Below are positions 904 to 28,413 of a DNA stretch of 32,000 nt, piece by piece. This DNA is from Aciduliprofundum boonei T469. Its GTDB lineage: Archaea > Thermoplasmatota > Thermoplasmata > Thermoplasmatales > Aciduliprofundaceae. The stretch covers positions 540,001-572,000 of the forward strand of contig NC_013926.1 in NCBI RefSeq assembly GCF_000025665.1, written 5' to 3'. Below the pieces are notes generated by a model. The model searched no databases. It was not told where the DNA came from and saw only the letters and a program-made list of their open reading frames with translations. The position numbers were made by a program, and so were the translations under genes. Within the stretch, counting starts at the first letter, position 1. Each line of letters starts with the position of its first letter.

Positions 904-3900
904 ATGAACACCAAAAATTTGAAAAAAGGAGAAGTGATCGCAGCGATTGCGTTGCTGCTGCTTAGCGCCCTGGTATTTGCAGGGGCAGTGAACGCTCTTG
1001 AGCCACAAACTGGAGAGATGAGATTCGTTTTAATCTATCATGATGTTATTACTGGAGATAGTGATTTTCTTTCTGGAGTGAGTGTATCTCTGTTTGAGAT
1101 TAATGGTAAATATATATCATCCGCTGTATCATCATCCAGCGGAGTTGTGAAATTTGAGAATATACCCTATGGAAATTATGCTCTGAAAACCGATGGACAG
1201 GTCAAAGGCAACTATTTCTATGATGAATCATTCGCCACTGTAAAGTTTGACTCTTCTGGCTTGCATACTCTTGATGGCAACAGTTTCTGGAGCCTAAATG
1301 TGAATAGGTATCCTCTTCCAAATGTTCTTAACCTAACTGTAGAGAAGAATGGAGAAATCATACCTGCTCATGTATCTGTTTATTTCAAGAATGTAGAGAT
1401 TGCGAGCAAGAGCATTGATACTTATGGTTTATTTAACCTTCCTGATGGAAAGGTCACATTGAAGATAACATACTTGGATGGCGGAGTTAGCAAGGCTTAC
1501 TACAAAGAATTGGCAGTTAGTGGAAATATGAATCTAACAATTAATGTGGGAAATGCAAAGAAGATATGGGGTATAGTGGAGGATTCTTCCACAGGTTTGC
1601 CAGTGGCTACAAATGTGCACATAACACTCATAAATGAGAGCTCCAACGAGTTTAATGTTTTGCAATTCCCTGGCGGGCCGTTTAGCTTCTACCTTGTGGC
1701 TCCTCAGAATTACAAGGTAGTAATAACTGCAGATGGTTATGGAATTAAGAGCTATGCCGCCACGGAGCTTATGGGCTCTTCACCCGCAAAGATAGAGTTG
1801 AATCCTGTGGAGAATGATATTAATTACACCATCACCTTATCTAATGATCTGAAGACCATAAATATGGTTTACACGATGGATATAACAAACGAGACAATTC
1901 TTGCAAATCTTCCTTACAACGATACCGGAGTGCTCTATTACCAGCTCAAGTTCTTGGGTGTGGATAATGCATATCTTGAGAATTATTTCACAAACAATGT
2001 TGCCAAGTACACCACCAATTTGATAACTCTTGGCGGCAATATCTACGAGCTATCCACATACACTTCCGACTGGAAGGTAATAAATGCTGGAAATGAGGAG
2101 TTTAAAGTTACAATTGATGCCACTTATGTAAACGAGAATATTTCAAAGGATAATCTGCTTAAGAATGGAATGGTGGAGCTTGACCTCTATGGTGGGCAAA
2201 CTACATATCTTGGAGCTAAGCTAGTTTACAAGTATACAATTCAGCTTCCAAGTGATTTAGAGAGGAGCAATGAGGTGCGTGGAGCCGCTGTTAATGGTTA
2301 TGTGAATACCCTCACGATAACAGACATAAAGACATCACCTGTTAAGATAGATTTGAAGGAGAGAAAGAGTCCAGCCATGAATGTAGATCCACTGCATTTC
2401 AAGTTTGGATGGACAAAGATGGAGAACAAGAATTATGTTGTTAATCAGAGTGCAGACAATTATACCATCGTAGTGCCAGCAGGAAAGAGTGTATGGTTTA
2501 ATGCATCCAAGGTTGTTTACGATATGGTTCGTAATAAAGTGGATCCAGAGAACACCACTTACACCTGGGTATTTGATGGGCAGATTAAAGCTTCAGGAAA
2601 GGGTGTTTATAATGTCACAAGCACATTCTTGGTTGGAAAGCACATCTTGCAGCTTAAGGTTGCAGATATAGGTGGAAACACAAATGAGACGAATATTACA
2701 ATCCTTGCAGATGCTTATTATCCTACTGTGAATATGGTAATTGAGTACCCATCTGGCAAGATGGTTGCAAAGGTAAACATGGCGGCTGATATGAAGACTT
2801 TGAATTATGATGTATATGGTAAGAATGGGACAGTGAGCATAGTGAATGGAACTGCCTCCATACCCGTAACTCTAACATTTAACCAGACTCAGGAGATAAT
2901 TTATGATGCTTCCAAGAGCTACGATACATATGATGGCAAGAATAAGGTTGATTTGCCCTTAAATGTGGTTTGGAATTTCAATGGAGTCAAGACCACAGGG
3001 CTCAACAAGACTTACGCCTTTGAGAAGCCAACAAGAAATGGCACTTATACGATAAGTGTTAAGTTTACAGATGCGGTTAACAACACCGTTACCGTTAACT
3101 TCAAGGTAATAATTAAGGATATAACTCCACCAGTGCCCAAAGTGAACATAACATCTGGAGGAAAGCAGGTAGCTGAGATTAAAGAGGGAGAGCAGGTGAC
3201 ATTTGATGCCTCTGCCAGCTATGATCCTGATAATGGTACAATAGTATCTTACCAGTGGACTATAAAGGATCATAATTACAAAGTGCTCAATGAGAGCTCT
3301 GGAGATTTCAAGATTATCAGCGGATCTTTCACATCTCCTAAGCTCACTCTTGAGTTCACCCACTTTGGCACTTATTACATAATTTTGAACATCACCGATG
3401 CTGCAGGAAATTACAAGGTTTACAACAAGACATTTAGGGTAGCACCAGTTAGACCTGATCTCTCAGTTACAGATGTGCAAGTAAAAGGAGATAGAGTTGA
3501 AGGAAGTCAGTTAACATTCGTGGTAAATGTCACAAATAATGGAAACAAGAATGCAAGTGTGTACTATATAATTCTCCTTGTGGACGGCAAGGAAGTGGTG
3601 AATAAGACATTCTACAATCTAAGTGCAGGAAGCTCTGTAGAGGATAATATTACATATGCATTCAGTGGAGCAAACAATTATTCAGTAACTGTTAAAGTCT
3701 ACTGCCCTGACGAGCCAGCAAGCTATACAAGTGATAACAAGAAAGAAATGAACATTGATATTGCTCAGGCACCTTGGAAGACACCTGCCTTGGTTATAGG
3801 GGTTATAGCGATAATTATAGTGCTGGGATACATCGGCTGGATTGCACAGAAGAAGAAGGCAGGCAAAGGCAAATTTACAAAGAGGACCAAGGAGAAGAAA

Positions 3901-3921
3901 GAAAAGAAGGGAAAGAAATAA
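904..3921 (+). CDS. Large cell-surface (S-layer-like) glycoprotein with PKD and CARDB domains, a C-terminal TM anchor and a Lys-rich tail
   Basis: 1005-aa ORF. Signal peptide AIALLLLSALVFAGAVNA. CarboxypepD_reg-like segment (GVVKFENIPYGNYALKT). At least three PKD-like modules (YTWVFDG..LQLKVADIGGN; VVWNFNG..GTYTISVKFTDAVNN; VTFDASASYDPDNGTIVSYQWTI..GTYYIILNITDAAGN). CARDB-like module (PDLSVTDVQV..FVVNVTNNGN). TM ALVIGVIAIIIVLGYIGWIA followed by KKKAGKGKFTKRTKEKKEKKGKK. Many N-x-S/T sequons. Confidence 0.85.
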   Translation: MNTKNLKKGEVIAAIALLLLSALVFAGAVNALEPQTGEMRFVLIYHDVITGDSDFLSGVSVSLFEINGKYISSAVSSSSGVVKFENIPYGNYALKTDGQVKGNYFYDESFATVKFDSSGLHTLDGNSFWSLNVNRYPLPNVLNLTVEKNGEIIPAHVSVYFKNVEIASKSIDTYGLFNLPDGKVTLKITYLDGGVSKAYYKELAVSGNMNLTINVGNAKKIWGIVEDSSTGLPVATNVHITLINESSNEFNVLQFPGGPFSFYLVAPQNYKVVITADGYGIKSYAATELMGSSPAKIELNPVENDINYTITLSNDLKTINMVYTMDITNETILANLPYNDTGVLYYQLKFLGVDNAYLENYFTNNVAKYTTNLITLGGNIYELSTYTSDWKVINAGNEEFKVTIDATYVNENISKDNLLKNGMVELDLYGGQTTYLGAKLVYKYTIQLPSDLERSNEVRGAAVNGYVNTLTITDIKTSPVKIDLKERKSPAMNVDPLHFKFGWTKMENKNYVVNQSADNYTIVVPAGKSVWFNASKVVYDMVRNKVDPENTTYTWVFDGQIKASGKGVYNVTSTFLVGKHILQLKVADIGGNTNETNITILADAYYPTVNMVIEYPSGKMVAKVNMAADMKTLNYDVYGKNGTVSIVNGTASIPVTLTFNQTQEIIYDASKSYDTYDGKNKVDLPLNVVWNFNGVKTTGLNKTYAFEKPTRNGTYTISVKFTDAVNNTVTVNFKVIIKDITPPVPKVNITSGGKQVAEIKEGEQVTFDASASYDPDNGTIVSYQWTIKDHNYKVLNESSGDFKIISGSFTSPKLTLEFTHFGTYYIILNITDAAGNYKVYNKTFRVAPVRPDLSVTDVQVKGDRVEGSQLTFVVNVTNNGNKNASVYYIILLVDGKEVVNKTFYNLSAGSSVEDNITYAFSGANNYSVTVKVYCPDEPASYTSDNKKEMNIDIAQAPWKTPALVIGVIAIIIVLGYIGWIAQKKKAGKGKFTKRTKEKKEKKGKK

Positions 3922-10592: not shown

Positions 10593-11066
10593 ATGAAAGC
10601 ACCAAAAATATGGAAACTCTGTGTTATCGGCGATAAAGCAGTGGGCAAAACCTCTTTGATCAGGAGATTCGTTTATGGTACATTTGAGCCGGAGGTTGAG
10701 GAGACATTAGAATCTCGAGCTTACAAGAAAAAATTTGGAGATGTGACCTTCTTGATTTGGGATGTTAGTGTTTATGAGCAGAACATAAAACCAATACTCT
10801 CTGGTGCTAAGGCTGTTATCATCGTGGGAGACTTAACAAGAAAAGAAACATTGGATACTATGAATCAAATTTCTCAATTCTTAGATGGGCACAAGGGTGA
10901 GAGAGTCTTTGTTGCCAATAAGAGTGATTTGAAGTATATGGCTCAGTTTTGGAAGGATGACCTTGAAGAAATATGTGATGGTGTTGCTCCTTATTTCCTG
11001 ACAAGTGCGAAAACTGGTGAGAATGTTGATGATGTATTCAAATATATCTTGGAAGATGCTGTATGA
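10593..11066 (+). CDS. Small Ras/Rab-like GTPase with a degenerate G3 motif
   Basis: 157-aa ORF. G1 is GDKAVGKTS, G4 is NKSD and G5 is SAK. The G3 position reads WDVSVYEQ instead of WDTAGQE. The stop overlaps the endA start (ATGA). Confidence 0.8.
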   Translation: MKAPKIWKLCVIGDKAVGKTSLIRRFVYGTFEPEVEETLESRAYKKKFGDVTFLIWDVSVYEQNIKPILSGAKAVIIVGDLTRKETLDTMNQISQFLDGHKGERVFVANKSDLKYMAQFWKDDLEEICDGVAPYFLTSAKTGENVDDVFKYILEDAV

Positions 11067-11932: not shown

Positions 11933-11953
11933 TGTTTTAATAGGAAAAGATGC

Positions 11954-14900
11954 ATGAAGGTTAGAATGGTGGAAACTGTCAAGATAAAAGCGGTGGTAAT
12001 TCTATCAATCCTCGTTATTGCTATAGGCATTCCCGCCATATATTATGCTTCAACAGAAAGGCAACCTACAAACAATCCTCCCGTGGCCATAATAACCGCC
12101 CCGTCTAGGGGATATACGGATACTCCCATAGAATTTTCCGCAGCTAATTCTATTGATGATGGTTTTATTCTAACTTACATTTGGGATTTTGGAGACGGAA
12201 CAAAATCTGCCGGTAAGATTGTGTATCACACTTACAGAGAAGAGGGGAACTATACCGTTACTTTGGTGGTATATGATAATGAGGGAGCATACTCCTATGC
12301 AAAGAAAATGATCACCATTGAGAAAAAGCAAGTCAAGGAAATTAAGGTATCAGTTAATGAATTATTAAAGAATGTTTCTGCTTACATAGGTAAGGAAGTT
12401 GTTGTGGATGGTATATTTGGATATGGACGCAATTACAGTTTCTTCCTTGTAAATAATTCAGGGTACAGAGGTATAAGGGTTTATGTAGAACCTGGAGCTC
12501 AAAGGCCAGAAACTATGCATTATGGAGATATCTTGGAAGTTCGTGCAAGATTTACAGTTTATAGAAATGAATTCGAGTTGAAAGTTGAGAACAATAGCAA
12601 GGATTATGTGAAAATAATAGGGTCTGGTGGAAAGAACACTTATGCTAATATAACCCTTCAAAATTGGCAAGAATACAACAATTCATTTATCCATCTAACG
12701 GGTAAGGTAACAAAGGTTTATGCCTCTTATAGATATTCCATAGGTCCCTTAACTGTTTACATATCCTTCAATGCCAACCGTACTGGGTCTCCTGCAGTAG
12801 GGGATGTTTTTGAAGTTCAAGGATTTTTAACTTATTATCGTTCTTACAAGTACAATGTGAGCTATATGGAAATTTATGTGCGCAACTCCACGGCTGATTT
12901 CTCCAAATATGTAAAATCTACCTATCAAAATGTGTCTATGAACTCTTTGCTTGAAGAACCAGATACTTACAATAACTCTGCCGTGCATATTCCATCAGCA
13001 TTTGTCATATCTTCCTACGCTTCTTGGAATTTTGAGGTGAGCGATAACATAAGCAATAATGCATCTATGCATGTTTATGTTGAAAGAGGAGGTATTGTCA
13101 AGGGAATGATATTTAATGGCGCAAAGGTAGAAATATGGGGAAATTTAGTGCTCTATCGTGGGCAGTGGGAGATAAAAATTAGAAATGCTACAACTGATAA
13201 GGTTTTAGTTTTGAGCAAGCCAGAATATAAGAATATATCCGTAGATAAACTCCTTGGAAATCCACAAGTTTACAATGGAAGCAATGTGCACTCTTGGGGA
13301 ATAATAAGTTGGTTATATCAGAATGAGAGCTCTCATTTTACCCTCTTCGGGCTTTTCTGGAATGGAAGCGAGGTAAAAGTTGTAGGATTCAATGGTTCTA
13401 GTATAGGGAGTATTCAAGAGGGATACTATGCAGATGTTTATGGAGAATTCACCTCTTATAGGGGAGAATGGGAGATTAAAATCAGGCCCAAGAGCTATGA
13501 TTATGTTGTGGCACATCCTCAAAGTTATAGAACGACAAATATCACTTCAATCCTTAAAGCTCCTGAAGATTACAACAACACTTTAGTTTATGTGCCTTAT
13601 GCGAAGGTTAAAAATGTGTTTGCAAACTGGCTTTTCTGGGTTAGCAATAATGTTTCAAATCCTAATGATTTGTCAGTGTATGTTGAGCGTGGCGGGATTG
13701 TAAATGGCACTCCTTATTTCAACGCTACAGTGGAAATATGGGGTATGGTCACGCAGTACAATGGCTCATGGGAGCTGAAAATAAGAAACAATACAGATGA
13801 CAAAGTTGTTGTGATTAGCAACGCAACATATAAAGAGGTATCAATAACCACGCTCTTGAGCTCACCTTTTAAGTATAACAATACTTTGGTTTATGTACCT
13901 GAGGCAACGGTGGTGAGTGTATACAATGCCTCCTGGCTATTCTGGATAAGTAATTCCACAAATTCCACCGAGGATGTTAGCGTATATGTGGAAAAAGGAG
14001 CTCATATAGATGCCCAGGTTTATGTCGGAGCGAAGGTTGAAGTGTGGGGTATGGTTACCCGATTTAATGGGAAATGGGAGATAAAGATAAGGGCAAACTC
14101 TGGGGATAATGTCAAGCTCATAACCCCAATTAGCAATTACACGGTGGTTAATATAACAGAACTCTTGGAGAATACAAGCGCTTATAATGGTACCCTTGTG
14201 GAAATACCAAATGCCACGGTGGTAAATGTATACGCTTCTTGGTTATTCTGGGTAAGCAATTCCACTGCGGATATCAAGGATATTGCAGTTTATGCTGAGA
14301 AAGGTGTGAAAGTCCCAACCTTGGGCAAAGGTGATACTGTCAAGATTTATGGAAATGTTACATATCATAATGGCTCATACGAGATACTTTTGCGGACAGG
14401 TACGCAAGATAAAGTCGTGGTTTTGCATTCCTCCGCTAAATATGTGAATCTGTCCTATTTGCACGAGGTGGATAGCAATGGGACTCTTATACATCTAGGC
14501 GAGCAAGTTATCGTGAATGCAACGGTTATTTCTTCTCCAGGGGTATTTTCGTTCACCTCAAGCAGTGGAAAGCCCATACTGAAAATGTATGTGGAAGATT
14601 CCACGGGGGGTGTTTTGGTATTTGGTTATGATATGGATTATGCAAAGTTGAATTTAACGGAAGGAGATATGGTACAGATTAGGGGTACAATAGCGCAGTA
14701 TAATGGGGAAGCAGAGCTTAAGATATCATCTCTTAATTACATAACTTATCTTAGAAAAGGGACAGTACCAAGTCCTCTGGTCATACCTACTGGGTATTTC
14801 TCCAATTGGAGCGCTGCAGAGAAGGTTGAGGGCATGCTTGTAAAAGTTCACGGCACTGTCACAAGCGTAAACCAGAATTATGGATATTTTTATCTGGATG

Positions 14901-15208
14901 ATGGGAGCGGTGCAGTAGAGATATATGCAAAAGCAGCAGGCATAGATATTTCAAATATTTCTCAGGGGGAGAATCTAACGGTTATAGGTGTAGTGTCTCA
15001 ATACGATAAGACATCGCCTTACACCAGTTATTATGAGATATTGCCTAGATATGCATCGGATATAATGCAGAATAATACATCATCGAAAGTTAGTGATAAA
15101 AATTTTGTAGGAAATTGGAAAGATAGTGAATTTGGTACATACTTGGAAGAGGTGTATGTATGGAGGATAGATACTGTCCTAATTGCGGCAGATATGTGGG
15201 TTCATTAG
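11954..15208 (+). CDS. Giant N-terminally anchored surface protein: TM, one PKD domain and nine OB-fold-like modules
   Basis: 1084-aa ORF. Signal anchor AVVILSILVIAIGIPAIYYA. PKD module (IEFSAANS..YIWDFGDGT..GNYTVTLVVYDNEG). Nine modules of about 100 aa end in Y-x-G-x-W/F-E-I/L-K-I/V-R. The last two carry D-x-T/S-G (YVEDSTGGVLVF, YLDDGSGAVEIY). It has dozens of N-x-S/T sequons. The start could be the Met at 11966, which is 24 nt downstream of TTTTAATA at 11935-11942. Confidence 0.85.
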   Translation: MKVRMVETVKIKAVVILSILVIAIGIPAIYYASTERQPTNNPPVAIITAPSRGYTDTPIEFSAANSIDDGFILTYIWDFGDGTKSAGKIVYHTYREEGNYTVTLVVYDNEGAYSYAKKMITIEKKQVKEIKVSVNELLKNVSAYIGKEVVVDGIFGYGRNYSFFLVNNSGYRGIRVYVEPGAQRPETMHYGDILEVRARFTVYRNEFELKVENNSKDYVKIIGSGGKNTYANITLQNWQEYNNSFIHLTGKVTKVYASYRYSIGPLTVYISFNANRTGSPAVGDVFEVQGFLTYYRSYKYNVSYMEIYVRNSTADFSKYVKSTYQNVSMNSLLEEPDTYNNSAVHIPSAFVISSYASWNFEVSDNISNNASMHVYVERGGIVKGMIFNGAKVEIWGNLVLYRGQWEIKIRNATTDKVLVLSKPEYKNISVDKLLGNPQVYNGSNVHSWGIISWLYQNESSHFTLFGLFWNGSEVKVVGFNGSSIGSIQEGYYADVYGEFTSYRGEWEIKIRPKSYDYVVAHPQSYRTTNITSILKAPEDYNNTLVYVPYAKVKNVFANWLFWVSNNVSNPNDLSVYVERGGIVNGTPYFNATVEIWGMVTQYNGSWELKIRNNTDDKVVVISNATYKEVSITTLLSSPFKYNNTLVYVPEATVVSVYNASWLFWISNSTNSTEDVSVYVEKGAHIDAQVYVGAKVEVWGMVTRFNGKWEIKIRANSGDNVKLITPISNYTVVNITELLENTSAYNGTLVEIPNATVVNVYASWLFWVSNSTADIKDIAVYAEKGVKVPTLGKGDTVKIYGNVTYHNGSYEILLRTGTQDKVVVLHSSAKYVNLSYLHEVDSNGTLIHLGEQVIVNATVISSPGVFSFTSSSGKPILKMYVEDSTGGVLVFGYDMDYAKLNLTEGDMVQIRGTIAQYNGEAELKISSLNYITYLRKGTVPSPLVIPTGYFSNWSAAEKVEGMLVKVHGTVTSVNQNYGYFYLDDGSGAVEIYAKAAGIDISNISQGENLTVIGVVSQYDKTSPYTSYYEILPRYASDIMQNNTSSKVSDKNFVGNWKDSEFGTYLEEVYVWRIDTVLIAADMWVH
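12335..15060 (+). repeat. Intragenic tandem array of nine diverged modules of about 300-309 nt (about 100 aa, OB-fold-like)
   Basis: In-frame module-start Tyr codons at 12641, 12923, 13226, 13526, 13829, 14138 and 14441 give periods of 282-309 nt. Recurrent strings: Y-x-N-[IV]-[ST]...LL..P..YN[NG][ST]; ASWLFWVSNST; VYVE[RK]G; VE[IV]WG.V..[YF][NR]G.WE[IL]KIR. Copies differ heavily at synonymous sites (compare 13929-13960 with 14233-14264). Confidence 0.8.
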
Positions 15209-15966
15209 AAGTTTGCCCGTACTGTGGCACTAAGATACCAAAGCATACCGGGTATTATTACGCAAAATATGGTGCTTTAACATTTGCTCTCATAGGTATA
15301 GTTCTCCTTTTAATATTTGCTCAAAATGTGCCTGTACAGTATGTGCACATAAAGGACATATCTCAAACATATAATTACGGCACTGTTGAGATAAAAGGTA
15401 TAGTTTCTTCTGCACCATCCTTGATAGTTTATAAGGAGGGATCCGCTACACTTTACATAGATGTGGATGATGGCACTGGAATAATGAGCGTGCATGTGTA
15501 TAGTCCAACTGTAGAAAAATTGGCAAAGGCGAATAAGCTCCCGGGATATGGCGAGTATGTGGATGTCATAGGAGAGGTGTATATAAGGGGAAGCAACATT
15601 TATATGATTGTTAACTCACCGGAGGAGATTAATATAATCAAGCCAAAACCCGTGCAGATGAGTATAGCGGATATTAATAGTATAGAATATCCTTATGCAA
15701 AATATGTGAGGGTTGAGTTGAATGCAACCGTTCTAAAAGTTTATGAAACTTCGAGGGGTAGTTATGTCCTAAATATAACTGATGGGACAGGTTATATGGA
15801 TATGTATCTTCCATATTCGGTGGTGTATTTTAGCAATATGGATGTAAAATCTCTTGAAGGTAAGAAAATAAATGTGGTGGGTTCTATAGAATGGTATGGC
15901 AGTTTTATGAATGGCTATTGGGAACTCATACCAAGCGACATTAATGATATAAAGGTGATAGGATGA
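15160..15966 (+). CDS. Zinc-ribbon, single-TM, 2x OB-fold membrane protein
   Basis: 268-aa ORF. N-terminal CPNCGRYVGSLEVCPYCG. TM YGALTFALIGIVLLLIFA. Two OB-like modules carry DxTG signatures (YIDVDDGTGIMSVHVY; VLNITDGTGYMDMYL). It overlaps the preceding gene by 49 nt. Confidence 0.8.
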   Translation: MEDRYCPNCGRYVGSLEVCPYCGTKIPKHTGYYYAKYGALTFALIGIVLLLIFAQNVPVQYVHIKDISQTYNYGTVEIKGIVSSAPSLIVYKEGSATLYIDVDDGTGIMSVHVYSPTVEKLAKANKLPGYGEYVDVIGEVYIRGSNIYMIVNSPEEINIIKPKPVQMSIADINSIEYPYAKYVRVELNATVLKVYETSRGSYVLNITDGTGYMDMYLPYSVVYFSNMDVKSLEGKKINVVGSIEWYGSFMNGYWELIPSDINDIKVIG

Positions 15967-17294
15967 AATGTCCCAGTTGTGGCAGGGATATTCCCGACGA
16001 TTCCGAGATATGCCCATACTGCACAGCCAGTATAAAACACAGGGTTAGGATTAAAGCAATATATGTTATAGCATTATCTTTGGTAATCCTTGCTGCATCC
16101 TATGGGGTGTTGGCGTATTATGGGGGAGAAGTTCCTATAACAAAGATAAAAGATTTGGGACTTACTGATAATTATAATTTCATCCGTTTGCATGGGAAAG
16201 TGGAAGGATATCCTTGGGTTTATGAAAATGATTATCAGGTAACCTCATTTAGATTCAAATTAAATGATGGTACTGGCACGGTGACTGTTAAGTTATATGG
16301 TAATGTTATAAAAAGAATGGTTGAACTGCATAAAATTCCGGCTATGGGGGATACTGTAGATATCAAAGGTACCTATATGTATAGTTCGAACTCTTTAATT
16401 TTGAACAATATAGATTATTTGGAGATAGAGAGCCCAAAACATAAGGGTTTGAATATAAGCGATATTATCAATGCCGCTCCATGGGACTATAAGAATGGTG
16501 CTAAGGTTTTTGTAAGTGGGAATATAACAAGTGTAAGAGAATTCAGTTTCGGGTTTATATGCACTATAGATGAGAAACTTGATGTTTTAATTCCCCGTGC
16601 TTACTACTCTCTACACATCTTGAACATAAGTAAAATGGGGTCTGCTTATACTAAATTTTATGGTGCTCTGCAGTTCTATCAGCCCGTTGCCCCTTCGGAT
16701 ACATACAAGGTTGTTAATCTTCCAGATTTGCTCTCCCATCCAGAGGCTTATAATGGAACATATATTAGAATTACCTGGGCAAGAGTTATGGATAGGAATC
16801 TCTTAACCAATACTATAACTGTTTATTCAAACGGCTCTTCAATTCCAGTTTATGTTAGAAATGGGGTGAAGTATTATACTCCTGGAACCTATGTGGAGAT
16901 TCAAGGAAAATTTGTAAATTACAAGGGCACATGGGAAATTTCTGTATCTCATAAGAACGATTTTGTAACAGAGCCAAAGTGGGAGTTGATAGCAGACCCA
17001 ACATACAAAGTTTTAGAGAAAAAAGAGTATGTGCCAAATGGCCCTATGAAAGAGTTCTCCCTTGTTGAGATTAAAGGCAGCGTCGTAGATTACCGTATGT
17101 TCTCTTATTCTGCGAGCTTAACCATTTGGGGCAACAACCAAAGCTATGTGGTTTATGTTGAGAATAAGGCAATGATGAAAAATATAGATTATGGAAGGCC
17201 TGTTGTTATTAGGGGTATCGTTACATATTATAATGGTCAGCCGGAGATAAAGGTTAGACCATTTACCGGTGATTTGGTGGAGGTGACTGGATGA
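15963..17294 (+). CDS. Zinc-ribbon, single-TM, 4x OB-fold membrane protein (paralogue of 15160..15966)
   Basis: 443-aa ORF. N-terminal CPSCGRDIPDDSEICPYC. TM AIYVIALSLVILAASYGVLAYY. Four OB-like modules (FKLNDGTGTVTVKLY; ...YVEIQGKFVNYKGTWEISV; ...VVIRGIVTYYNGQPEIKVR). ATGA overlaps at both ends. Confidence 0.8.
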   Translation: MKCPSCGRDIPDDSEICPYCTASIKHRVRIKAIYVIALSLVILAASYGVLAYYGGEVPITKIKDLGLTDNYNFIRLHGKVEGYPWVYENDYQVTSFRFKLNDGTGTVTVKLYGNVIKRMVELHKIPAMGDTVDIKGTYMYSSNSLILNNIDYLEIESPKHKGLNISDIINAAPWDYKNGAKVFVSGNITSVREFSFGFICTIDEKLDVLIPRAYYSLHILNISKMGSAYTKFYGALQFYQPVAPSDTYKVVNLPDLLSHPEAYNGTYIRITWARVMDRNLLTNTITVYSNGSSIPVYVRNGVKYYTPGTYVEIQGKFVNYKGTWEISVSHKNDFVTEPKWELIADPTYKVLEKKEYVPNGPMKEFSLVEIKGSVVDYRMFSYSASLTIWGNNQSYVVYVENKAMMKNIDYGRPVVIRGIVTYYNGQPEIKVRPFTGDLVEVTG

Positions 17295-18613
17295 CAATAG
17301 CATATCTACTTATGGCTATAGCGTTTGTGATAATAGGCGCCCTGATAGGCTCTGCTTTATCAATGCTTCCCGGCTTGCATGTTTACAATGTGATTGGCTT
17401 CTTCTTGCTGTTTTATTTCACGGCATCATTCGTTCTTGATCCTATGCTGATGGTTCTTATGCTTATAGGTATGCTGGTAAGCTATGCCTTTGTATTCACA
17501 ATTCCTTCAATATATTTCAGTGCTCCTGACGATTCCACAATGTTTGTTCTTATGCCCTCTTTAAGGTATCTCAAGGAGGGACGTGGTCACGAAGCTGTTG
17601 TGCTCATAGCTACTGGTGCTTTAACGGGATTGTTTGCAATAGTTCTCGTAGTTCCCCTGTTCATGGGACCTTTATCTATTGTTTGGGATATTGTCTCTAC
17701 TCATCTTCACTGGATAATAGGAGCTGTTATTGCCTATATGCTTCTTTCAGAGTTTCCAAAAGATTTTGGAAGACACAAGAATCCTCTTCATGGCTTGAAA
17801 GAAGGGTGGAAGACCATTATGGCAGGGTATCTCACTTTCTTTCTATCCTCTATCCTGGGTATAATAACATTCAGTAAAACTATAGTTCCTGCAAATCATG
17901 CATTTCAGAGCCTTATGGCTCCATTAATTGGTTTATTTGCAACATCTTCCATCATACTTAATTTGATTTCAAAGTACGAGATTCCCGAGCAAAATATACC
18001 AAAGAGCATAGATTCCACCCCCAAAGAACTGCTTCATGGTGCAGTAGCTGGCTCTTCTGGAGGTCTATTTGCAGCATTTCTACCAGCGGTAACCGCCGGT
18101 GTTGGAGGTTATATGGCATCCCATGGCTTTGCTCAGAAGGGAGACAAAAGCTTCTTGGTATCTATGGGTGCATCTCGTGTGGTTTACTATGTGGGAGCTA
18201 TAGCCCTATTCTTCCTTCCAGTTTTGCATTTGCGCCGTGGTGCTTTGGCTATGGGTATAAACTTGTTCTTCACACCGGAGAGTGTTCAGCAGTTCTACCT
18301 TGTGGATATGGGTATTGCGATAGCTGGGATATATGCATTCTTTGTTGTAATTTATGCCTCCAAGTTCCTTGCTAAGAGAATATACAAGATAAATCCAAAG
18401 GTTCTGAATTTGATAGTTCTCGGTATTGTAGTTATGCTGGTTTATTTTATGACCTCTTGGCAGGGATTGATAATAATGTCCGTGGCTACAGCTATAGGCC
18501 TAATACCCGTGCTTTTCAACTCACGCCGCTCTCACTGTCTTGCGGTTATCCTTGTTCCGATATGGTTGAATATGAGTGGAATAGCCCTCGGTGGCTTATT
18601 CGGGTTGTGGTGA
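17291..18613 (+). CDS. TctA/DUF112-family polytopic membrane protein (putative permease)
   Basis: 440-aa ORF that is highly hydrophobic throughout. It has LSMLPGLHVYN and GAVAGSSGGLFAAFLPAVTAGVGG motifs that parallel the 1..783 paralogue and TctA-type transporters. It is translationally coupled to the upstream gene. Confidence 0.75.
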   Translation: MTIAYLLMAIAFVIIGALIGSALSMLPGLHVYNVIGFFLLFYFTASFVLDPMLMVLMLIGMLVSYAFVFTIPSIYFSAPDDSTMFVLMPSLRYLKEGRGHEAVVLIATGALTGLFAIVLVVPLFMGPLSIVWDIVSTHLHWIIGAVIAYMLLSEFPKDFGRHKNPLHGLKEGWKTIMAGYLTFFLSSILGIITFSKTIVPANHAFQSLMAPLIGLFATSSIILNLISKYEIPEQNIPKSIDSTPKELLHGAVAGSSGGLFAAFLPAVTAGVGGYMASHGFAQKGDKSFLVSMGASRVVYYVGAIALFFLPVLHLRRGALAMGINLFFTPESVQQFYLVDMGIAIAGIYAFFVVIYASKFLAKRIYKINPKVLNLIVLGIVVMLVYFMTSWQGLIIMSVATAIGLIPVLFNSRRSHCLAVILVPIWLNMSGIALGGLFGLW

Positions 18614-18619
18614 TGAAAA

Positions 18620-19753
18620 ATGAAGGGATTTGCCCATTTCTTGGCGGGATTAACAACGGCCACCTTCGTGGTAGTTATTGCCAATATGTACTATGGAAAC
18701 AATGTAATTGCAAATGAGATAGTTGTTCATAAGGCCCTGATAATAATTTTGGGCGGGATATTTGGAATCCTTCCAGATACCATTGATTTTAGATTTGCAA
18801 AGTATCTGCAAAAGCATGATTATGAAGTTGATATGGACGAATGGAATTTAGATCCTCAACTTGTGGCCACAACTCTAGCAAAGGCTATTGATCAGGCGAA
18901 CGAAGAGAATAGGGAAGTTAATGTTATGCTTCATACAATAAAGATATCTTCAGATCAATGGCGTCAATATACTGTTCATTTTGATACGGAGAATAAGAAG
19001 GTTATATGTGATATTGGTCCCATAATATCTGGATTTGAAAAGAGACCTTACATAACCTCCTATCTTCCTCCAGAAAAAGCTCATGCCGAGGCAAGTTTTA
19101 AAGCAGATTTAGATTACAATTATGATGCAGTTACCCATGTGGACATTCTTTCGGGACCAGATTTCTCGTTCTTTCCAGAGGGAAATAATAGGGTGCGGGC
19201 AGATTTCATACCTTGGCATAGGCGGTGGGCACATAGCATTACCCTTGGTATAATGTTTGCACCCATTGGGTTCATGCTCTATGGTTTTACGCCTATGGGA
19301 TGGACAGCGTTTTGGATAATTATGCTGGGATTCTGGTCCCACATACTAACTGACCACTTTGGTCTGATGGGAAGTAACATGTTTCCGCCATTTACCACAA
19401 AGCGTATTCCCGGATTCAAGGTCACAAGAAGTATGAGTACATTAGCTAATGTGTATACAAACTACTTGGATATTTTGCTTATAATATTCAATGTAAACGC
19501 CCTCAATTATGCGTTATCCGGCAAAGATTATCTCTCGATGCCATGGTTATCATATTTTGGTGAAAATCTTAGCTATTTAGAGTGGTACCTCATTGGAATA
19601 ATGAACTACTTGGTTTATTACATAATTCCACCGATTCTTGTATCTTATCTCATAGTATCTTGGCTCAGAAAACGCAAAGGAGTCAGAGAATTAACTGAGA
19701 AAGAAGCGAGAAGTGCAGAGCAGTTGGAGGAATTGGGCGGAGCAAACGTGTAA
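18620..19753 (+). CDS. Membrane-bound metal-dependent hydrolase-like protein (DUF457/YdjM-like) with a large soluble insert
   Basis: 377-aa ORF. The motifs FAHFLAG, GILPDTIDF, HRRWAHSITLG and WSHILTDHFG match my recollection of the DUF457 His/Asp pattern. An insert of about 140 aa that is hydrophilic (residues about 60-200) separates PDxD from HRxWxHS. It has multiple TM segments. Confidence 0.6.
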   Translation: MKGFAHFLAGLTTATFVVVIANMYYGNNVIANEIVVHKALIIILGGIFGILPDTIDFRFAKYLQKHDYEVDMDEWNLDPQLVATTLAKAIDQANEENREVNVMLHTIKISSDQWRQYTVHFDTENKKVICDIGPIISGFEKRPYITSYLPPEKAHAEASFKADLDYNYDAVTHVDILSGPDFSFFPEGNNRVRADFIPWHRRWAHSITLGIMFAPIGFMLYGFTPMGWTAFWIIMLGFWSHILTDHFGLMGSNMFPPFTTKRIPGFKVTRSMSTLANVYTNYLDILLIIFNVNALNYALSGKDYLSMPWLSYFGENLSYLEWYLIGIMNYLVYYIIPPILVSYLIVSWLRKRKGVRELTEKEARSAEQLEELGGANV

Positions 19754-22716: not shown

Positions 22717-22739
22717 TTTGTAGTTTTTAGAGCTACAAA
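22717..22739 (-). terminator. Possible terminator hairpin at the end of the 22733..23665 gene
   Basis: Inverted repeat TTTGTAG (22717-22723) and CTACAAA (22733-22739) with a 9-nt loop. The stop codon lies in the stem. On the minus strand the hairpin is followed by AAAATTTTT. Archaeal terminators are oligo-T based, so the hairpin may be incidental. Confidence 0.3.
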
Positions 22740-23665
22740 CGAAATCTTCTTATCAATGGGGCGGAGAAGAGTATTGCGGCAGCTATGATTATTCCAATAC
22801 CGAGGGACAATGCGTGGTCAATGGCATAATTTATTACATTTTGCACGCCCTGTACAACTGGATTTGAATTTGTAATTGGTATCGGGAGATAGATGTATGG
22901 ATCCTGTATAATTGAACCGTTGGTGTTTTTAAATGAGAAGTAAAGAGATAGTTGAGAACCATCGTATTTATAAAATGTCCTTATATCATTTTGGTAATCC
23001 CACATGTATTTGAGAGAGACTTTATTATGACCGAAACCTATCATTCCTTTATGATCTTGTCCAAATCTATGCTCTTTAGCTTCTAAACTCCTATTCATTC
23101 TCGTCCAGTGATTGTTCGGATGGTTGCATTCGAAAACATGCGAATTATGGGATAGTAAGTCCCTATAACTCATATGCTCTTCAAGGAGAATGTATACATC
23201 TTTAACAGAACTTACTATCTTTGTATCGTATCTAATTGTGCTTCTATTTACATTAAAATCACCTTTTCGGTACGATTTATCTGCAATATAGAAATCTATT
23301 GTTATTTTTATTTTTGAATTTCTGTATTTTCCATGATTATGTGTGAATTCTATTGTTTTCCACATGGTTATCTTCGTGTAATTTCCCATAATATTGCTGT
23401 ATCCACTAATTTTTTTTACTTCCATATTTTTTATACTCTCTCCTTTGAGTCCTTGAAGTTTGGAAATTTGTGGTCCTCCCACCAGATATATTTTGCTGAA
23501 TTGCAGGTAGAAGTAATGTGTGTTATTTATGGATATTCTTACAGTAGCATTTTTCCCATCAAAAACTATGCTAACTGGAGACTGTGGGGTGGCAGCATGA
23601 GAACTGATGGTGAAGGATGAGAGAATTACGAAGATAACGGCGATTAGAGATAATAATCTTTTCAC
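22733..23665 (-). CDS. Hypothetical secreted or membrane-anchored protein
   Basis: 310-aa ORF with a GTG start. Signal peptide LLSLIAVIFVILSSFTISSHA. C-terminal TM GIGIIIAAAILFSAPLI plus RRFRL. I do not recognise a family. It is clearly more AT-rich than the housekeeping neighbours by eye. A TATA-like box (minus strand, 23687-23694) lies 22 nt upstream. Confidence 0.7.
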   Translation of the reverse strand: MKRLLSLIAVIFVILSSFTISSHAATPQSPVSIVFDGKNATVRISINNTHYFYLQFSKIYLVGGPQISKLQGLKGESIKNMEVKKISGYSNIMGNYTKITMWKTIEFTHNHGKYRNSKIKITIDFYIADKSYRKGDFNVNRSTIRYDTKIVSSVKDVYILLEEHMSYRDLLSHNSHVFECNHPNNHWTRMNRSLEAKEHRFGQDHKGMIGFGHNKVSLKYMWDYQNDIRTFYKYDGSQLSLYFSFKNTNGSIIQDPYIYLPIPITNSNPVVQGVQNVINYAIDHALSLGIGIIIAAAILFSAPLIRRFRL

Positions 23666-23752: not shown

Positions 23753-23793
23753 CACAAATCGCTTATATACATCCAAGAATGAGCTATTTGGTG

Positions 23794-24996
23794 ATGAAAA
23801 TGAAGAGGGTATGGATATTATTACTGGCAATTCTTCTAGCTGTACCAGCTACGGCTAGTATTGCATCTGCCAGTGGGCATCAGCATGGGCATTCAGGATA
23901 CCTTGGATACTTTGAGTACAGCAACGGAGAGGTTAAAGGCAAATTTGTAAATTTTCAAGTAAATTCCAAAAGTGGAGTAATTGAAAATTACACGGTGGGT
24001 AATACAACTATTTTTGAGAAGATATCCTATGAGAACAATACTATAGGACATATCAGAGTATCAGGAGCCAGATTTTTCTATTATGGAGTTGCATCTCCTT
24101 TTGGATGGAACAATACTCATAAAATGGGTTATATGTGGAGAGTAATAATGGTTCACGATAATCCTGTGGGCGTACTTCACATAGTAACTCATGGTCAAGA
24201 TGTTATAAAATACCATCTTGCACAGGGGATAAATGCAACTCTTTCCAATAGCACTGTAGTTTTGAGTGGAAAAGTATCCGCTTATCTGTTTATTTCAAAT
24301 GCTCTGCCAACCATCCAAAATAATACAATTTACATAAAAACAAGGAACAATGCGACTGCAAGTGTGATATTTATTGATGAGGTTAATCTAAATATCCCGA
24401 AGAAAATAAAAAATATGGAAATAAAGAGCTTGCAAAAACACAAGCTTGGTGGTGAGATGTACATAGGTCCTAAAGGAACGGATTTTGTAAATTATACCTA
24501 CGGAATGAATGCAAAGCTAACTATGAAGGAAAAGAACCATCTGCAGATACAAGTGTCTGCCCAGGGAGTGAAGGGTGGGAGAATCATGTTGATTAATGTG
24601 AATCGTACAATGCTAAATTACAACTCTTCTATGCGCTTAATTGTAAAATTCGATGGCAAAGAGATAAACAAGACGAGCATGAATAACCTAATAAATTGTA
24701 GCAGTTCACAAGCGATGTACGCTGTTTACAACAATAATGATACTGTGAGTATTGCTATATATATACCACATTTCTCTGAGCATGTGATAGATGTGGAGAG
24801 CGAAGCTAGTTCTAGTGGAACCAGTAGCGGAGGAAGTTCAGCCAGTGGTGGGACATCCAATGCAGAGAGTTCAAATGAGAACACAAAATCATCTGAAGGA
24901 ATGCCCTCCCCAATGTTGTGGGGAATAGTGGCAGCGATAATAGTTATTATCATTGTTGCAGGAGTGGCAGTTGCTAAAAAATCAAAATCTAACTGA
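23794..24996 (+). CDS. Hypothetical surface-anchored protein with a Ser/Gly-rich stalk and a C-terminal TM
   Basis: The track ORF starts at 23779. I prefer the in-frame ATG at 23794 (MKMKRVWILLLAILLAVPATASIASA), which is 23 nt after the TATA box. It has a His-rich SGHQHGHSGY after the signal peptide. The C-terminal stalk is SSSGTSSGGSSASGGTSNAESSNENTKSS, followed by TM LWGIVAAIIVIIIVAGVAVA and KKSKSN. Many sequons. Confidence 0.7.
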   Translation: MKMKRVWILLLAILLAVPATASIASASGHQHGHSGYLGYFEYSNGEVKGKFVNFQVNSKSGVIENYTVGNTTIFEKISYENNTIGHIRVSGARFFYYGVASPFGWNNTHKMGYMWRVIMVHDNPVGVLHIVTHGQDVIKYHLAQGINATLSNSTVVLSGKVSAYLFISNALPTIQNNTIYIKTRNNATASVIFIDEVNLNIPKKIKNMEIKSLQKHKLGGEMYIGPKGTDFVNYTYGMNAKLTMKEKNHLQIQVSAQGVKGGRIMLINVNRTMLNYNSSMRLIVKFDGKEINKTSMNNLINCSSSQAMYAVYNNNDTVSIAIYIPHFSEHVIDVESEASSSGTSSGGSSASGGTSNAESSNENTKSSEGMPSPMLWGIVAAIIVIIIVAGVAVAKKSKSN

Positions 24997-27062: not shown

Positions 27063-27962
27063 ATGGCTGGAGATGCCAATACGACATTCATATTGTTCGT
27101 AACATTCATAGTAGTTTTCATAGTTGGGATAGCTGCAGCTTTAATGCTTCTCAAAAAGAGAGCCTCTACGAAGGTGACAAAATTGGGGGAAAGTAGCGTT
27201 GAGGATAACGCTTATAATCAAATTCAAATTGTTAAATCAATGACGAGAGTTATGAAGAATAAAGGTTATAATGTTGAGCCTGTGGAGAGTATGATAGCAA
27301 AGGCAGAGAGGGCCTATGATTATCAAAGGTATTTGGAGTCGATAGATATAACTAATAATGCAAAGCGCGCCCTTCTTCGTTTAAAAGAGGAAAACAAGAT
27401 GGAGGATTCTTTAAGTCCTGAAGTGAAAAAGGAGTTAGAGATTATAAAGAAAATTGAGGAAGAGCCGAAAAAAGATGATATTCCCCCTCAAATTAGTGAT
27501 TTTGTAAAAAAATTGCCTCCAAATTATCTTCAGTCAAAATTTGAGATTGGTGTGGTTGAGGAGAAAATTGTGAAAATGGAAGAAGGGCAGGTGAAGGAGT
27601 ATGCTAAGCTTTATATGGAGAGGGCAAAAAGGGCTTTTGAGATGGGTGATTACAGCGAAGCTCTAAAGCTTGCGGTTAAGAGTAATAGAATAATCGATAC
27701 GGGAGAGTTGCCTGAGAATGTGCCATTTAAAGAAGAGCATAAACCACTTGTTGTTGCGCCTTTGATTGAAGAGAAGGAAGAGGAAGAAGAGGAGAAAGAG
27801 GAACTACATTGTCCAAATTGCGGTGCTGTGGTTAGGCCGGAGGATAAATACTGCTGGAACTGCGGAGCAAAATTGGTATTCATTTACAAATGCCCAAATT
27901 GTGGTGCAGAGGTTAGCAGTGAGGATAAATATTGTAGAAATTGCGGGTACAAGCTGAGGTGA
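27063..27962 (+). CDS. Membrane-anchored protein with a helical domain, an acidic stretch and a C-terminal double zinc ribbon
   Basis: 299-aa ORF. N-terminal TM FILFVTFIVVFIVGIAAALMLL. Charged helical middle. EEKEEEEEEKEE run. Two ribbons (CPNCGAVVRPEDKYCWNCG and CPNCGAEVSSEDKYCRNCG). TTTTTATA at 27033-27040 lies 22 nt upstream. Confidence 0.7.
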   Translation: MAGDANTTFILFVTFIVVFIVGIAAALMLLKKRASTKVTKLGESSVEDNAYNQIQIVKSMTRVMKNKGYNVEPVESMIAKAERAYDYQRYLESIDITNNAKRALLRLKEENKMEDSLSPEVKKELEIIKKIEEEPKKDDIPPQISDFVKKLPPNYLQSKFEIGVVEEKIVKMEEGQVKEYAKLYMERAKRAFEMGDYSEALKLAVKSNRIIDTGELPENVPFKEEHKPLVVAPLIEEKEEEEEEKEELHCPNCGAVVRPEDKYCWNCGAKLVFIYKCPNCGAEVSSEDKYCRNCGYKLR

Positions 27963-27966
27963 CTCT

Positions 27967-28413
27967 ATGCGTCTTTACCATTTATCCCTCTTGCTCATAT
28001 TTGCAGGCATAGCCCTGCTATTTTACGCTGTTGCAATAGGTGAGGCAAATGCATCTCTTTTCTTGATTTTTCCTGTAATATACGGCTCGGGAGTATATTC
28101 TCTATTGGCCATATTCTTAATAATGATAGGAATGATTCTGCTATTCTTTGCACCTCTTCAAAGCGTGAAAGAGAATGTGAATGACTATTACGAGAAAGAT
28201 TATGATAATTACGATTATGTAAATTACGAAAGTTATAAAGGGACGAAAGATTCGGAAAAGTATAGAGAAAATAAAGCAAGGTATGGTGGAGTTGTGCTGA
28301 TTGGCCCGATTCCCATCATCTTTGGCTCGGATAAAAATATGGCTAAGATATCGATATTAGCTGCAATTTTGATGCTTGTAGCAATATTTTTAATTTTCCT
28401 TCTTTATGGATAG
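27967..28413 (+). CDS. Small membrane protein, DUF131-like, with a Tyr/Asp/Asn-rich insert
   Basis: 148-aa ORF with three or four hydrophobic segments. GGVVLIGPIPIIFGSD resembles the conserved core I recall for archaeal DUF131/TIGR00304 proteins. A low-complexity loop reads NDYYEKDYDNYDYVNYESY. Its 3' end overlaps the convergent gene by 10 nt. Confidence 0.55.
   Translation: MRLYHLSLLLIFAGIALLFYAVAIGEANASLFLIFPVIYGSGVYSLLAIFLIMIGMILLFFAPLQSVKENVNDYYEKDYDNYDYVNYESYKGTKDSEKYRENKARYGGVVLIGPIPIIFGSDKNMAKISILAAILMLVAIFLIFLLYG

Follow-up and report, generated by a model that had tools for sequence, protein, structure and literature searches.

The analysed stretch of the Aciduliprofundum boonei T469 genome (NC_013926.1, positions 540,001 to 572,000; its full 32,000 nucleotides are referred to below as the window) carries a five-gene cluster. 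With moderate confidence, we propose that its products form a machine of the cell envelope which takes hold of nucleic acid outside the cell, most likely DNA that is single-stranded or frayed, and transfers it through the cytoplasmic membrane. In this DHVE2 member of the Thermoplasmatota, the five co-directional and tightly packed open reading frames (ORFs) occupy positions 11954-19753 of the plus strand (Table 1) and encode three OB-fold proteins (i, ii and iii), a TctA-like membrane protein (iv) and a DUF457/YdjM-like membrane protein (v). To our knowledge, archaea lack ComEC, and for the transport of DNA across their membrane during natural transformation there are no candidates other than the OB-fold and TctA-like genes that genetic work identified in 2023. 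The cluster and its relatives add to these genes a conserved DUF457/YdjM-like partner whose metal-type site is invariant, conserved cytoplasmic zinc ribbons attached to the OB anchors, and a recurrent secreted PLD-type phosphodiesterase. The two-gene genetic hit is thereby extended to a defined parts list that is widespread in bacteria as well, and candidate functions are offered for two large orphan membrane families. In the literature searched, we found no report of the YdjM-like third component, the cytoplasmic zinc ribbons, the bacterial distribution or the DHVE2-specific expansion of OB folds.

The two methanogen genes were described in Methanococcus maripaludis JJ, where transposon hits and complemented in-frame deletions demonstrated that natural transformation requires each of MMJJ_13020 and MMJJ_13030 (PMC10133366). 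MMJJ_13020 encodes an OB-fold protein with one transmembrane (TM) segment, and the adjacent MMJJ_13030 encodes a TctA-like protein that has 11 TM segments (Fonseca et al. 2023, PMC10133366). In Methanoculleus thermophilus, too, natural transformation requires the TctA-like homologue, and the authors proposed that the DNA transporter of archaea is the TctA-like protein. For the gene pair as a whole, binding and transport of DNA are proposed; DUF457/YdjM, zinc ribbons, PKD domains and bacteria are not mentioned in their report (PMC10133366). This gene pair is relevant to A. boonei because here, too, single-TM PF01336 genes are located directly upstream of a PF01970 gene, and in both cases TctB and TctC are missing. 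The A. boonei cluster differs from the methanogen pair by its three OB genes with about 15 modules, its zinc ribbons, its PKD domain and its conserved DUF457/YdjM-like gene. A first-pass annotation of this DNA, made from the sequence alone, had noted no characterised archaeal system of such composition; since MMJJ_13020 and MMJJ_13030 have been published, that statement is not supported and no longer holds for two core components out of three. No follow-up to the 2023 study, no link between DUF112 and DUF457, and no account of the Aciduliprofundum locus were found in the literature searched; a paper on CRISPR Cap1 that seemed to concern DUF457 deals with DUF4579 and is irrelevant here. Taken together, the comparison suggests that the cluster is an expanded relative of a recently recognised archaeal DNA-uptake module.

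The conservation of the gene arrangement was assessed by scanning a single genome for each of 185,579 species with an alignment of TctA-like proteins. Relatives were detected in 437 genomes; the best 80 loci were analysed, and their ORFs were searched with the window proteins to score OB and YdjM-like neighbours. Counted at the species level, an OB gene is located directly upstream of the TctA-like gene in 24 of 24 archaeal loci, a YdjM-like gene directly downstream in 22 of 24, and the complete triad is present in 19 of the 21 loci in which it is testable. The archaeal carriers belong to DHVE2, other Thermoplasmata, Njordarchaeota and Archaeoglobales. Among bacterial loci, again at the species level, 36 of 43 have an OB gene no more than 2.5 kb away and 19 of 34 contain the triad; these carriers are mostly Anaerolineae, together with Verrucomicrobiota, Myxococcota, Planctomycetota and Spirochaetota. 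The architecture of an N-terminal CxxC...CxxC motif followed by a TM segment and an OB array is kept in 23 of 24 archaeal and 33 of 36 bacterial loci. The protein with a PKD domain and nine OB modules (i) is an addition restricted to DHVE2 and some Thermoplasmata. When distant YdjM-like homologues were looked up independently, the same gene order was seen in a marine archaeal metagenome-assembled genome and in Natronoplasma. The synteny of OB, DUF112 and DUF457 genes, which the first-pass annotation could only propose as a point to be checked in other genomes, thus extends well beyond the window. The genes for the zinc ribbon-TM-OB, TctA-like and YdjM-like proteins, which recur together across archaea and bacteria, form a conserved functional unit rather than a chance assembly.

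The association is also found on plasmids, where only two of 72,556 records match the TctA-like protein at an E-value of 1e-3 or better. Both are cyanobacterial, with 23-27% identity, and in both a PF01336 OB protein precedes the TctA-like gene. These OB and TctA-like pairs, located on Cylindrospermopsis plasmid NZ_CP060823.1 (L095:5231-9409) and on a Pseudanabaena plasmid (L096:4895-7389), have an OB protein with an N-terminal hydrophobic helix and without the zinc ribbon; in one of the two, a 586-aa NERD nuclease-related protein is encoded after the TctA-like gene. Two other neighbours recur in bacteria. A gene for a GNAT acetyltransferase of ~290 aa is located immediately upstream of the OB gene in seven loci of Anaerolineales (L056, L075, L079, L081, L083, L089 and L090; e.g. 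L090:5065-5943), and a histidine kinase recurs in eight bacterial loci. These two neighbours may reflect lineage-specific regulation.

The domain assignments of the first-pass annotation (PKD, OB, zinc ribbon, TctA/DUF112 and DUF457) were all confirmed by Pfam. Protein i matches PKD_4 (PF18911; 72 bits, E-value 4e-20) and the PF01336 tRNA_anti-codon OB family (61.3 bits), while proteins ii and iii match PF01336 at 35.4 bits each (cutoff 27) in addition to N-terminal zinc-ribbon families. The number of OB modules was determined with a hidden Markov model (HMM) profile seeded on the Pfam-validated OB domain and iterated over 118 homologues. This profile recognised nine modules in protein i, two in protein ii and three in protein iii; what is left of protein iii matches weakly (14.4 bits) and can be aligned with the second OB module of protein ii. 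The cluster therefore contains 14 clear modules and one degenerate module, in agreement with the earlier estimate of about 15. The previously suggested distribution held for the two modules of protein ii, while the four claimed for protein iii resolve into three clear and one degenerate. Within protein i, modules 1-7 are sequon-rich and divergent and lack the D-x-[TS]-G motif, and modules 8-9 are canonical. Alignment by hhalign of the seven central modules with the canonical ones (98.1% probability, E-value 9e-14) indicates that the motif-poor modules are homologous to canonical OB modules. With above-cutoff Pfam matches, the iterated profile and the hhalign result in accord, the modules can be regarded as true PF01336-type OB folds, as originally called. 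The proposed paralogy of proteins ii and iii was likewise borne out (26% identity over 246 aa, E-value 4e-21). The duplications that gave rise to the modules are old, because DNA-level tandem repeats are absent from the OB genes.

In all three OB proteins, a single hydrophobic helix with basic residues ahead of it is found at the N-terminus. The N-x-S/T sequons number 49 in protein i against ~13 expected, compared with two in protein ii and six in protein iii. The OB modules are thus predicted to be anchored outside the cell, a location that for protein i is backed by the sequon excess. The extracellular topology that had been proposed for all modules is therefore upheld by the helices and basic N-termini of the three proteins; its second argument, sequon enrichment, applies to protein i and does not apply to proteins ii and iii. 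Elsewhere in the window, a protein of 299 aa (27063-27962, plus strand), followed by a DUF131 protein (27967-28413, plus strand), carries at its C-terminus two zinc ribbons (DZR, DUF7577 and DUF7575) of the same small families that weakly match proteins ii and iii.

With respect to the ligand, a search with the profile of the OB module nearest the membrane retrieved the ssDNA-binding OB folds of Pyrococcus abyssi RPA/RPA32 (E-values 3e-5 to 8e-5) and then SSB of Deinococcus radiodurans (E-value 0.016), and neither BOF nor sugar-binding OB folds were among the matches of this search. The match to BOF (PF04076) remained sub-threshold in Pfam (15.4 bits vs cutoff 25.8, E-value 0.02). Archaeal RPA and bacterial SSB thus resemble the modules in their OB profile; they are cytoplasmic replication proteins, whereas the modules of the cluster would form extracellular, anchored and partly glycosylated arrays. 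The first-pass annotation had suggested the capture, processing or import of either extracellular DNA (eDNA) or RNA, or an oligosaccharide. Because the nearest solved OB folds are those of RPA and SSB, the BOF match is sub-threshold, and nucleases and genes of nucleoside catabolism occur in the neighbourhood of related clusters (see below), nucleic acid is favoured over oligosaccharide, so that the nucleic-acid side of that suggestion is supported and the oligosaccharide side disfavoured.

Protein iv is a full-length member of the TctA family, matching PF01970 at 166.6 bits over model positions 1-422 of 423. In the TctABC systems TctA is accompanied by TctB and TctC; neither was detected in the window, in the gene table of +/-10 kb, or among the neighbour families recurring in at least two of 82 loci, and the TctA-like gene is flanked by OB-fold and DUF457 genes instead. 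This raises the alternative of a TTT-like transporter for a non-nucleic ligand, such as an oligosaccharide, an organic acid, a metal chelate or an envelope polymer, in which the OB proteins would replace TctC, the YdjM-like protein would be an envelope or lipid hydrolase, and the PLD proteins found near related clusters would be phospholipases. The absence of TctB and TctC implies that another receptor is needed, OB folds can bind non-nucleic ligands, as the sub-threshold BOF match recalls, and the PLD superfamily includes phospholipases. We nevertheless consider this explanation quite improbable: the OB modules score above the PF01336 threshold with a profile nearest to RPA and SSB, the neighbouring genes include nucleoside and nuclease functions, the LTD domain accompanies known surface nucleases such as Hvo_1477, and the methanogen genetics indicate DNA.

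The AlphaFold2 (AF2) model of protein iv (pLDDT 85.3) has no significant Foldseek neighbour in the PDB, its weak matches being small-molecule carriers, and no PDB relative was identified by sequence. The fold consequently does not separate a channel from an elevator carrier. Two further groups of TctA-like proteins were observed. Some Thermoplasmata proteins of ~520 aa (P0096-P0105) contain a charged loop insertion of ~80 aa after the SE[FW]PK motif (past residue 163 of protein iv), which is not an OB fold; a fusion of OB and TctA domains, sought in the long variants (L065 and the 520-aa forms), was rejected, as loop insertions or spurious extensions were seen instead. In DPANN archaea (Nanoarchaeota and Pacearchaeota), a separate clade of TctA-like proteins of ~400 aa shares 29% identity with protein iv (P0167 clade; 2826 matches at an E-value of 1e-5 or better). 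At the one locus inspected (L092:8001-9209), the DPANN gene stands alone, beside genes for DNA polymerase D and Cdc6 and with no OB or YdjM-like neighbour.

Protein v matches PF04307 (YdjM/DUF457) at 37.6 bits vs cutoff 29. In an alignment of 42 homologues, the invariant columns are D53, D56, H200, R201, H205, S206, H241 and D245, together with H6; the PDxD / HRxWxHS / SHxxxDH pattern read earlier from the single sequence coincides exactly with the invariant columns of the family. E. coli YdjM and YbcI (DUF457; COG1988, ‘membrane-bound metal-dependent hydrolase’) share the PF04307 match and the conserved His/Asp pattern with protein v, which is distinguished from them by an additional 130-aa alpha/beta domain after TM2 and by its genomic coupling to TctA-like and OB genes. 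The AF2 model of protein v is confident (pLDDT 89.2, pTM 0.86). A search of 1.84 billion representative proteins with the beta-domain alone yielded 120 matches, nearly all of them at the same position, which indicates that the domain is exclusive to the protein v subfamily; being confined to its own subfamily, it provides no outside clue to function. According to the positive-inside rule applied to the 42 homologues, the His/Asp cluster and the beta-domain most likely face the cytoplasm. The extracellular role implied earlier for a ‘membrane hydrolase’ is not supported by this predicted orientation, and no fold relation to a hydrolase emerged, since neither a profile search nor Foldseek identified a PDB relative of protein v.

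The idea that DUF457 belongs to the P1 nuclease / phospholipase C superfamily received no support from Foldseek against the PDB or from the PDB-sequence profile search and was dropped. Residues 225-300 of protein v (window positions 19292-19519) align weakly, at a non-significant E-value of ~1, with TM helices of ZnT3, placing H241-x3-D245 on the HxxxD zinc site of ZnT; this alignment is not evidence for an intramembrane or interfacial metal site in protein v, although it would be compatible with one. In a metagenomic YdjM-like protein (P0048), an OB fold is inserted inside the soluble domain. A solitary bacterial YdjM-like gene with 35% identity and with the beta-domain (L008:3461-6604) is located among genes for LpxK, a glycosyltransferase and a small PLDc_2/SACK1 protein, an envelope/lipid context unlike the nucleic-acid contexts seen elsewhere.

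The neighbours of related clusters were examined for further indications of function. In Natronoplasma, genes for DeoC, phosphopentomutase, thymidine phosphorylase, cytidine deaminase and PNP are located immediately upstream of the cluster, and LTD + PLD and HD proteins are encoded downstream. A Pfam census of 96 operon-linked neighbours identified PLDc_2 (nine) and LTD (eight) as the commonest domains. A protein combining LTD and PLD is encoded in the locus after the YdjM-like gene in 5 of 10 non-DHVE2 archaeal loci and 6 of 17 bacterial loci, and in none of 12 DHVE2 loci. All six LTD-PLD sequences inspected have an N-terminal signal or anchor, and five of the six contain two HxKxxxxD motifs. 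Six DHVE2 loci have an HD/HD_assoc_2 phosphohydrolase after the YdjM-like gene, and four loci contain DeoC. The phosphodiesterases with a lamin-tail domain (LTD) share their domain logic with Hvo_1477 of Haloferax, an LTD-bearing surface nuclease required for growth on eDNA, and with the LTD nucleases of the ExeM/NucH type. They differ from these in having a double-HKD PLD catalytic domain in place of a thermonuclease or EEP domain, and no such gene is present in the A. boonei cluster.

These neighbours bear on the main rival explanation, purely nutritional scavenging, in which surface OB arrays would hold eDNA or RNA, nucleases (PLD proteins outside, others elsewhere) would cut it, and the TctA-like protein would be an ordinary ion-coupled symporter of mono- or oligonucleotides, with neither long-DNA entry nor transformation. 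Such a role would suit the contiguity of the Natronoplasma cluster with a complete nucleoside-catabolism operon, the recurrence of DeoC and HD phosphohydrolases nearby, the membership of TctA in a family of small-anion secondary transporters together with the small-molecule carriers among the weak Foldseek neighbours, the lack of a motor ATPase in the cluster, and the ability of Haloferax to use eDNA as a phosphorus source (PMC3929857). We regard scavenging as the sole function as rather unlikely, because M. maripaludis lacking either gene of homologous type can no longer be transformed with plasmids, a process in which long DNA must enter, and because the predicted cytoplasm-facing site of the YdjM-like protein and the OB insert in the predicted cytoplasmic domain of P0048 fit a polymer that arrives inside the cell. 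Moreover, roles in nutrition and in transformation are not mutually exclusive.

For the proposed uptake of nucleic acid, the following mechanism can be outlined. Proteins i-iii would display ~15 RPA-like OB folds outside the cell, providing multivalent binding of the polymer and its hand-over to the membrane. Proteins ii and iii would constitute the conserved core, each with one TM helix tethered to a small cytoplasmic zinc ribbon, while protein i, found in DHVE2 and related Thermoplasmata only, may serve as a heavily glycosylated nine-OB ‘fishing line’. The TctA-like protein iv would be the conduit, as proposed for MMJJ_13030, and the YdjM-like protein v would receive or process the incoming strand at the cytoplasmic face, by cleavage or by hand-off. 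The zinc ribbons may dock on the YdjM-like protein or on TctA and may couple the anchors to their partners. In many other lineages, the secreted LTD + double-HKD PLD phosphodiesterase probably prepares the substrate outside. The imported DNA could serve transformation, nutrition or both, and eDNA capture is suggested to matter for vent Thermoplasmata such as Aciduliprofundum, in which the OB array is enlarged to ~15 modules.

The resulting scheme resembles ComEA/ComEC in combining an outside DNA-binding module, a polytopic conduit and a metal-dependent hydrolase, and the resemblance is one of analogy only: Competence (PF03772), DUF4131, Lactamase_B and ComEA HhH were not detected in the five proteins by Pfam at an E-value of 1 or better. 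In the competence machinery, DNA is bound outside by ComEA and by the OB domain of ComEC, and it is processed by the beta-lactamase domain of ComEC. In contrast to ComEC/ComEA, the parts are separate polypeptides, and the putative metal site would lie on the cytoplasmic side, not on the outer side where the ComEC nuclease is usually said to act. More tentatively, the triad could be a self-contained three-component DNA translocon, unrelated to ComEC, that follows the same logic with a cytoplasmic processing subunit, and would then represent the long-sought DNA importer of archaea, present also in several bacterial phyla. If this possibility proves true, it would provide the first function for DUF112 (archaeal TctA-like) and DUF457.

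The direction of transport is not readable from the sequence, and multivalent surface OB arrays could also tether eDNA. E. coli ydjM, for its part, belongs to the LexA (SOS) regulon (bioRxiv 10.1101/2024.02.22.581605), which links the DUF457 family to DNA and also suits the proposed uptake of nucleic acid. One may accordingly consider that, instead of importing DNA, the cluster keeps the cell's own DNA at the surface or exports it, for a biofilm matrix or cell-cell exchange, or that it has a repair-linked membrane function. We judge these roles highly improbable, as the methanogen phenotype is a loss of uptake, the catabolic deo neighbours fit import, and the cluster contains no secretion ATPase.

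Several points weigh against nucleic-acid uptake as proposed here. The TctA family to which protein iv belongs comprises small-anion secondary transporters, and the cluster has no gene for an ATPase or a motor. Sequons are not clearly enriched in proteins ii and iii. The hydrolase activity of DUF457 is known from annotation only, and the model of protein v has no structural neighbour; in some bacteria, YdjM-like genes are solitary (two loci looked up). PLD-family enzymes can be phospholipases. Finally, the kinship to the M. maripaludis proteins is one of family and architecture, not of alignment, and no methanogen is present among the named TctA-like matches of at least 36% identity, so that the A. 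boonei subfamily probably represents a distinct branch.

The coordinates of the cluster and its features are listed in Table 1. The five ORFs and their junctions are exactly as first annotated: genes i and ii overlap by 49 nt, the ii/iii and iii/iv junctions are ATGA overlaps, and 6 nt separate genes iv and v. The TATA-like element noticed earlier as a possible promoter of the cluster is indeed present, and recurs in the same place in the eight orthologous DHVE2 loci that were compared, among them L021, whose upstream sequence differs. It is located 12 nt from the first ATG (11954) and ~24-27 nt from a conserved second in-frame ATG (11966, M5). Since the spacing of the element fits the second ATG rather than the first, the best reading would be a dedicated promoter with a leaderless mRNA starting at M5, and the start at 11954 assumed in the first-pass annotation is not favoured.

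Table 1. Coordinates of the five genes of the A. boonei cluster and of their features in the window
Feature	Position	Strand	Description
TATA-like element TTTTAATA	11935-11942	+	directly after the endA stop codon; candidate cluster promoter
Gene i	11954-15208	+	1084 aa; signal anchor, PKD, 9 OB modules; predicted surface protein
Signal-anchor TM helix of protein i	11984-12040 (aa 11-29)	+	Kyte-Doolittle peak 2.65; preceded by K2, R4, K10, K12
PKD domain of protein i	12071-12298 (aa 40-115)	+	Pfam PF18911
Nine ~100-aa OB modules of protein i	12344-15067 (aa 131-1038)	+	iterated HMM domains
Gene ii	15160-15966	+	268 aa; zinc ribbon aa 6-24, TM aa 39-57, 2 OB aa 64-266
Zinc ribbon of protein ii	15175-15231	+	CxxC-x12-CxxC (CPNCGR...CPYCG), predicted cytoplasmic; Zn_Ribbon_1, DZR and DUF7575 matches
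Gene iii	15963-17294	+	443 aa; zinc ribbon aa 3-20, TM aa 32-50, OB region aa 62-439
Gene iv	17291-18613	+	440 aa; polytopic TctA-family protein (PF01970/DUF112); candidate conduit
Gene v	18620-19753	+	377 aa; membrane protein of the DUF457/YdjM family; 6 TM and N-in/C-in topology predicted
Soluble alpha/beta insertion domain of protein v	18809-19207 (aa 64-196, ~130 aa)	+	after TM2; AF2 secondary structure; predicted cytoplasmic

Identical cluster proteins are encoded in a second A. boonei assembly, GCA_000151085.1, in which the YdjM-like gene is split into two ORFs of 106 and 275 aa (L001:11330-12462), only the 275-aa ORF being retained by the gene caller. The gene is intact, with 377 aa, in the window and in L002, and the split is probably a draft sequencing frameshift. 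A search with Rfam found no RNA family, and the anti-phage defence models of PADLOC gave nothing significant for any of the five proteins.

Among other genes of the window, a second large surface-type protein of 1005 aa (904-3921, plus strand), with CarboxypepD_reg, PKD, CARDB and Ig-like domains and without OB folds, appears unrelated to the cluster. Downstream of the cluster, a 310-aa protein without a Pfam match (22733-23665, minus strand) carries a signal-like helix at its N-terminus and a hydrophobic anchor at its C-terminus, and next to it a 405-aa protein (23779-24996, plus strand) is assigned to the recent Pfam family MAST (PF27849) in the precomputed table but had no match in our own Pfam scan. 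Upstream of the cluster, a 157-aa small GTPase of the Ras/Roc family (10593-11066, plus strand) is encoded between the archaeosine tRNA-guanine transglycosylase and EndA, with an ATGA overlap with endA; the same trio of tRNA-guanine transglycosylase, GTPase and endA genes precedes the cluster in several DHVE2 loci (L013, L014 and L016).

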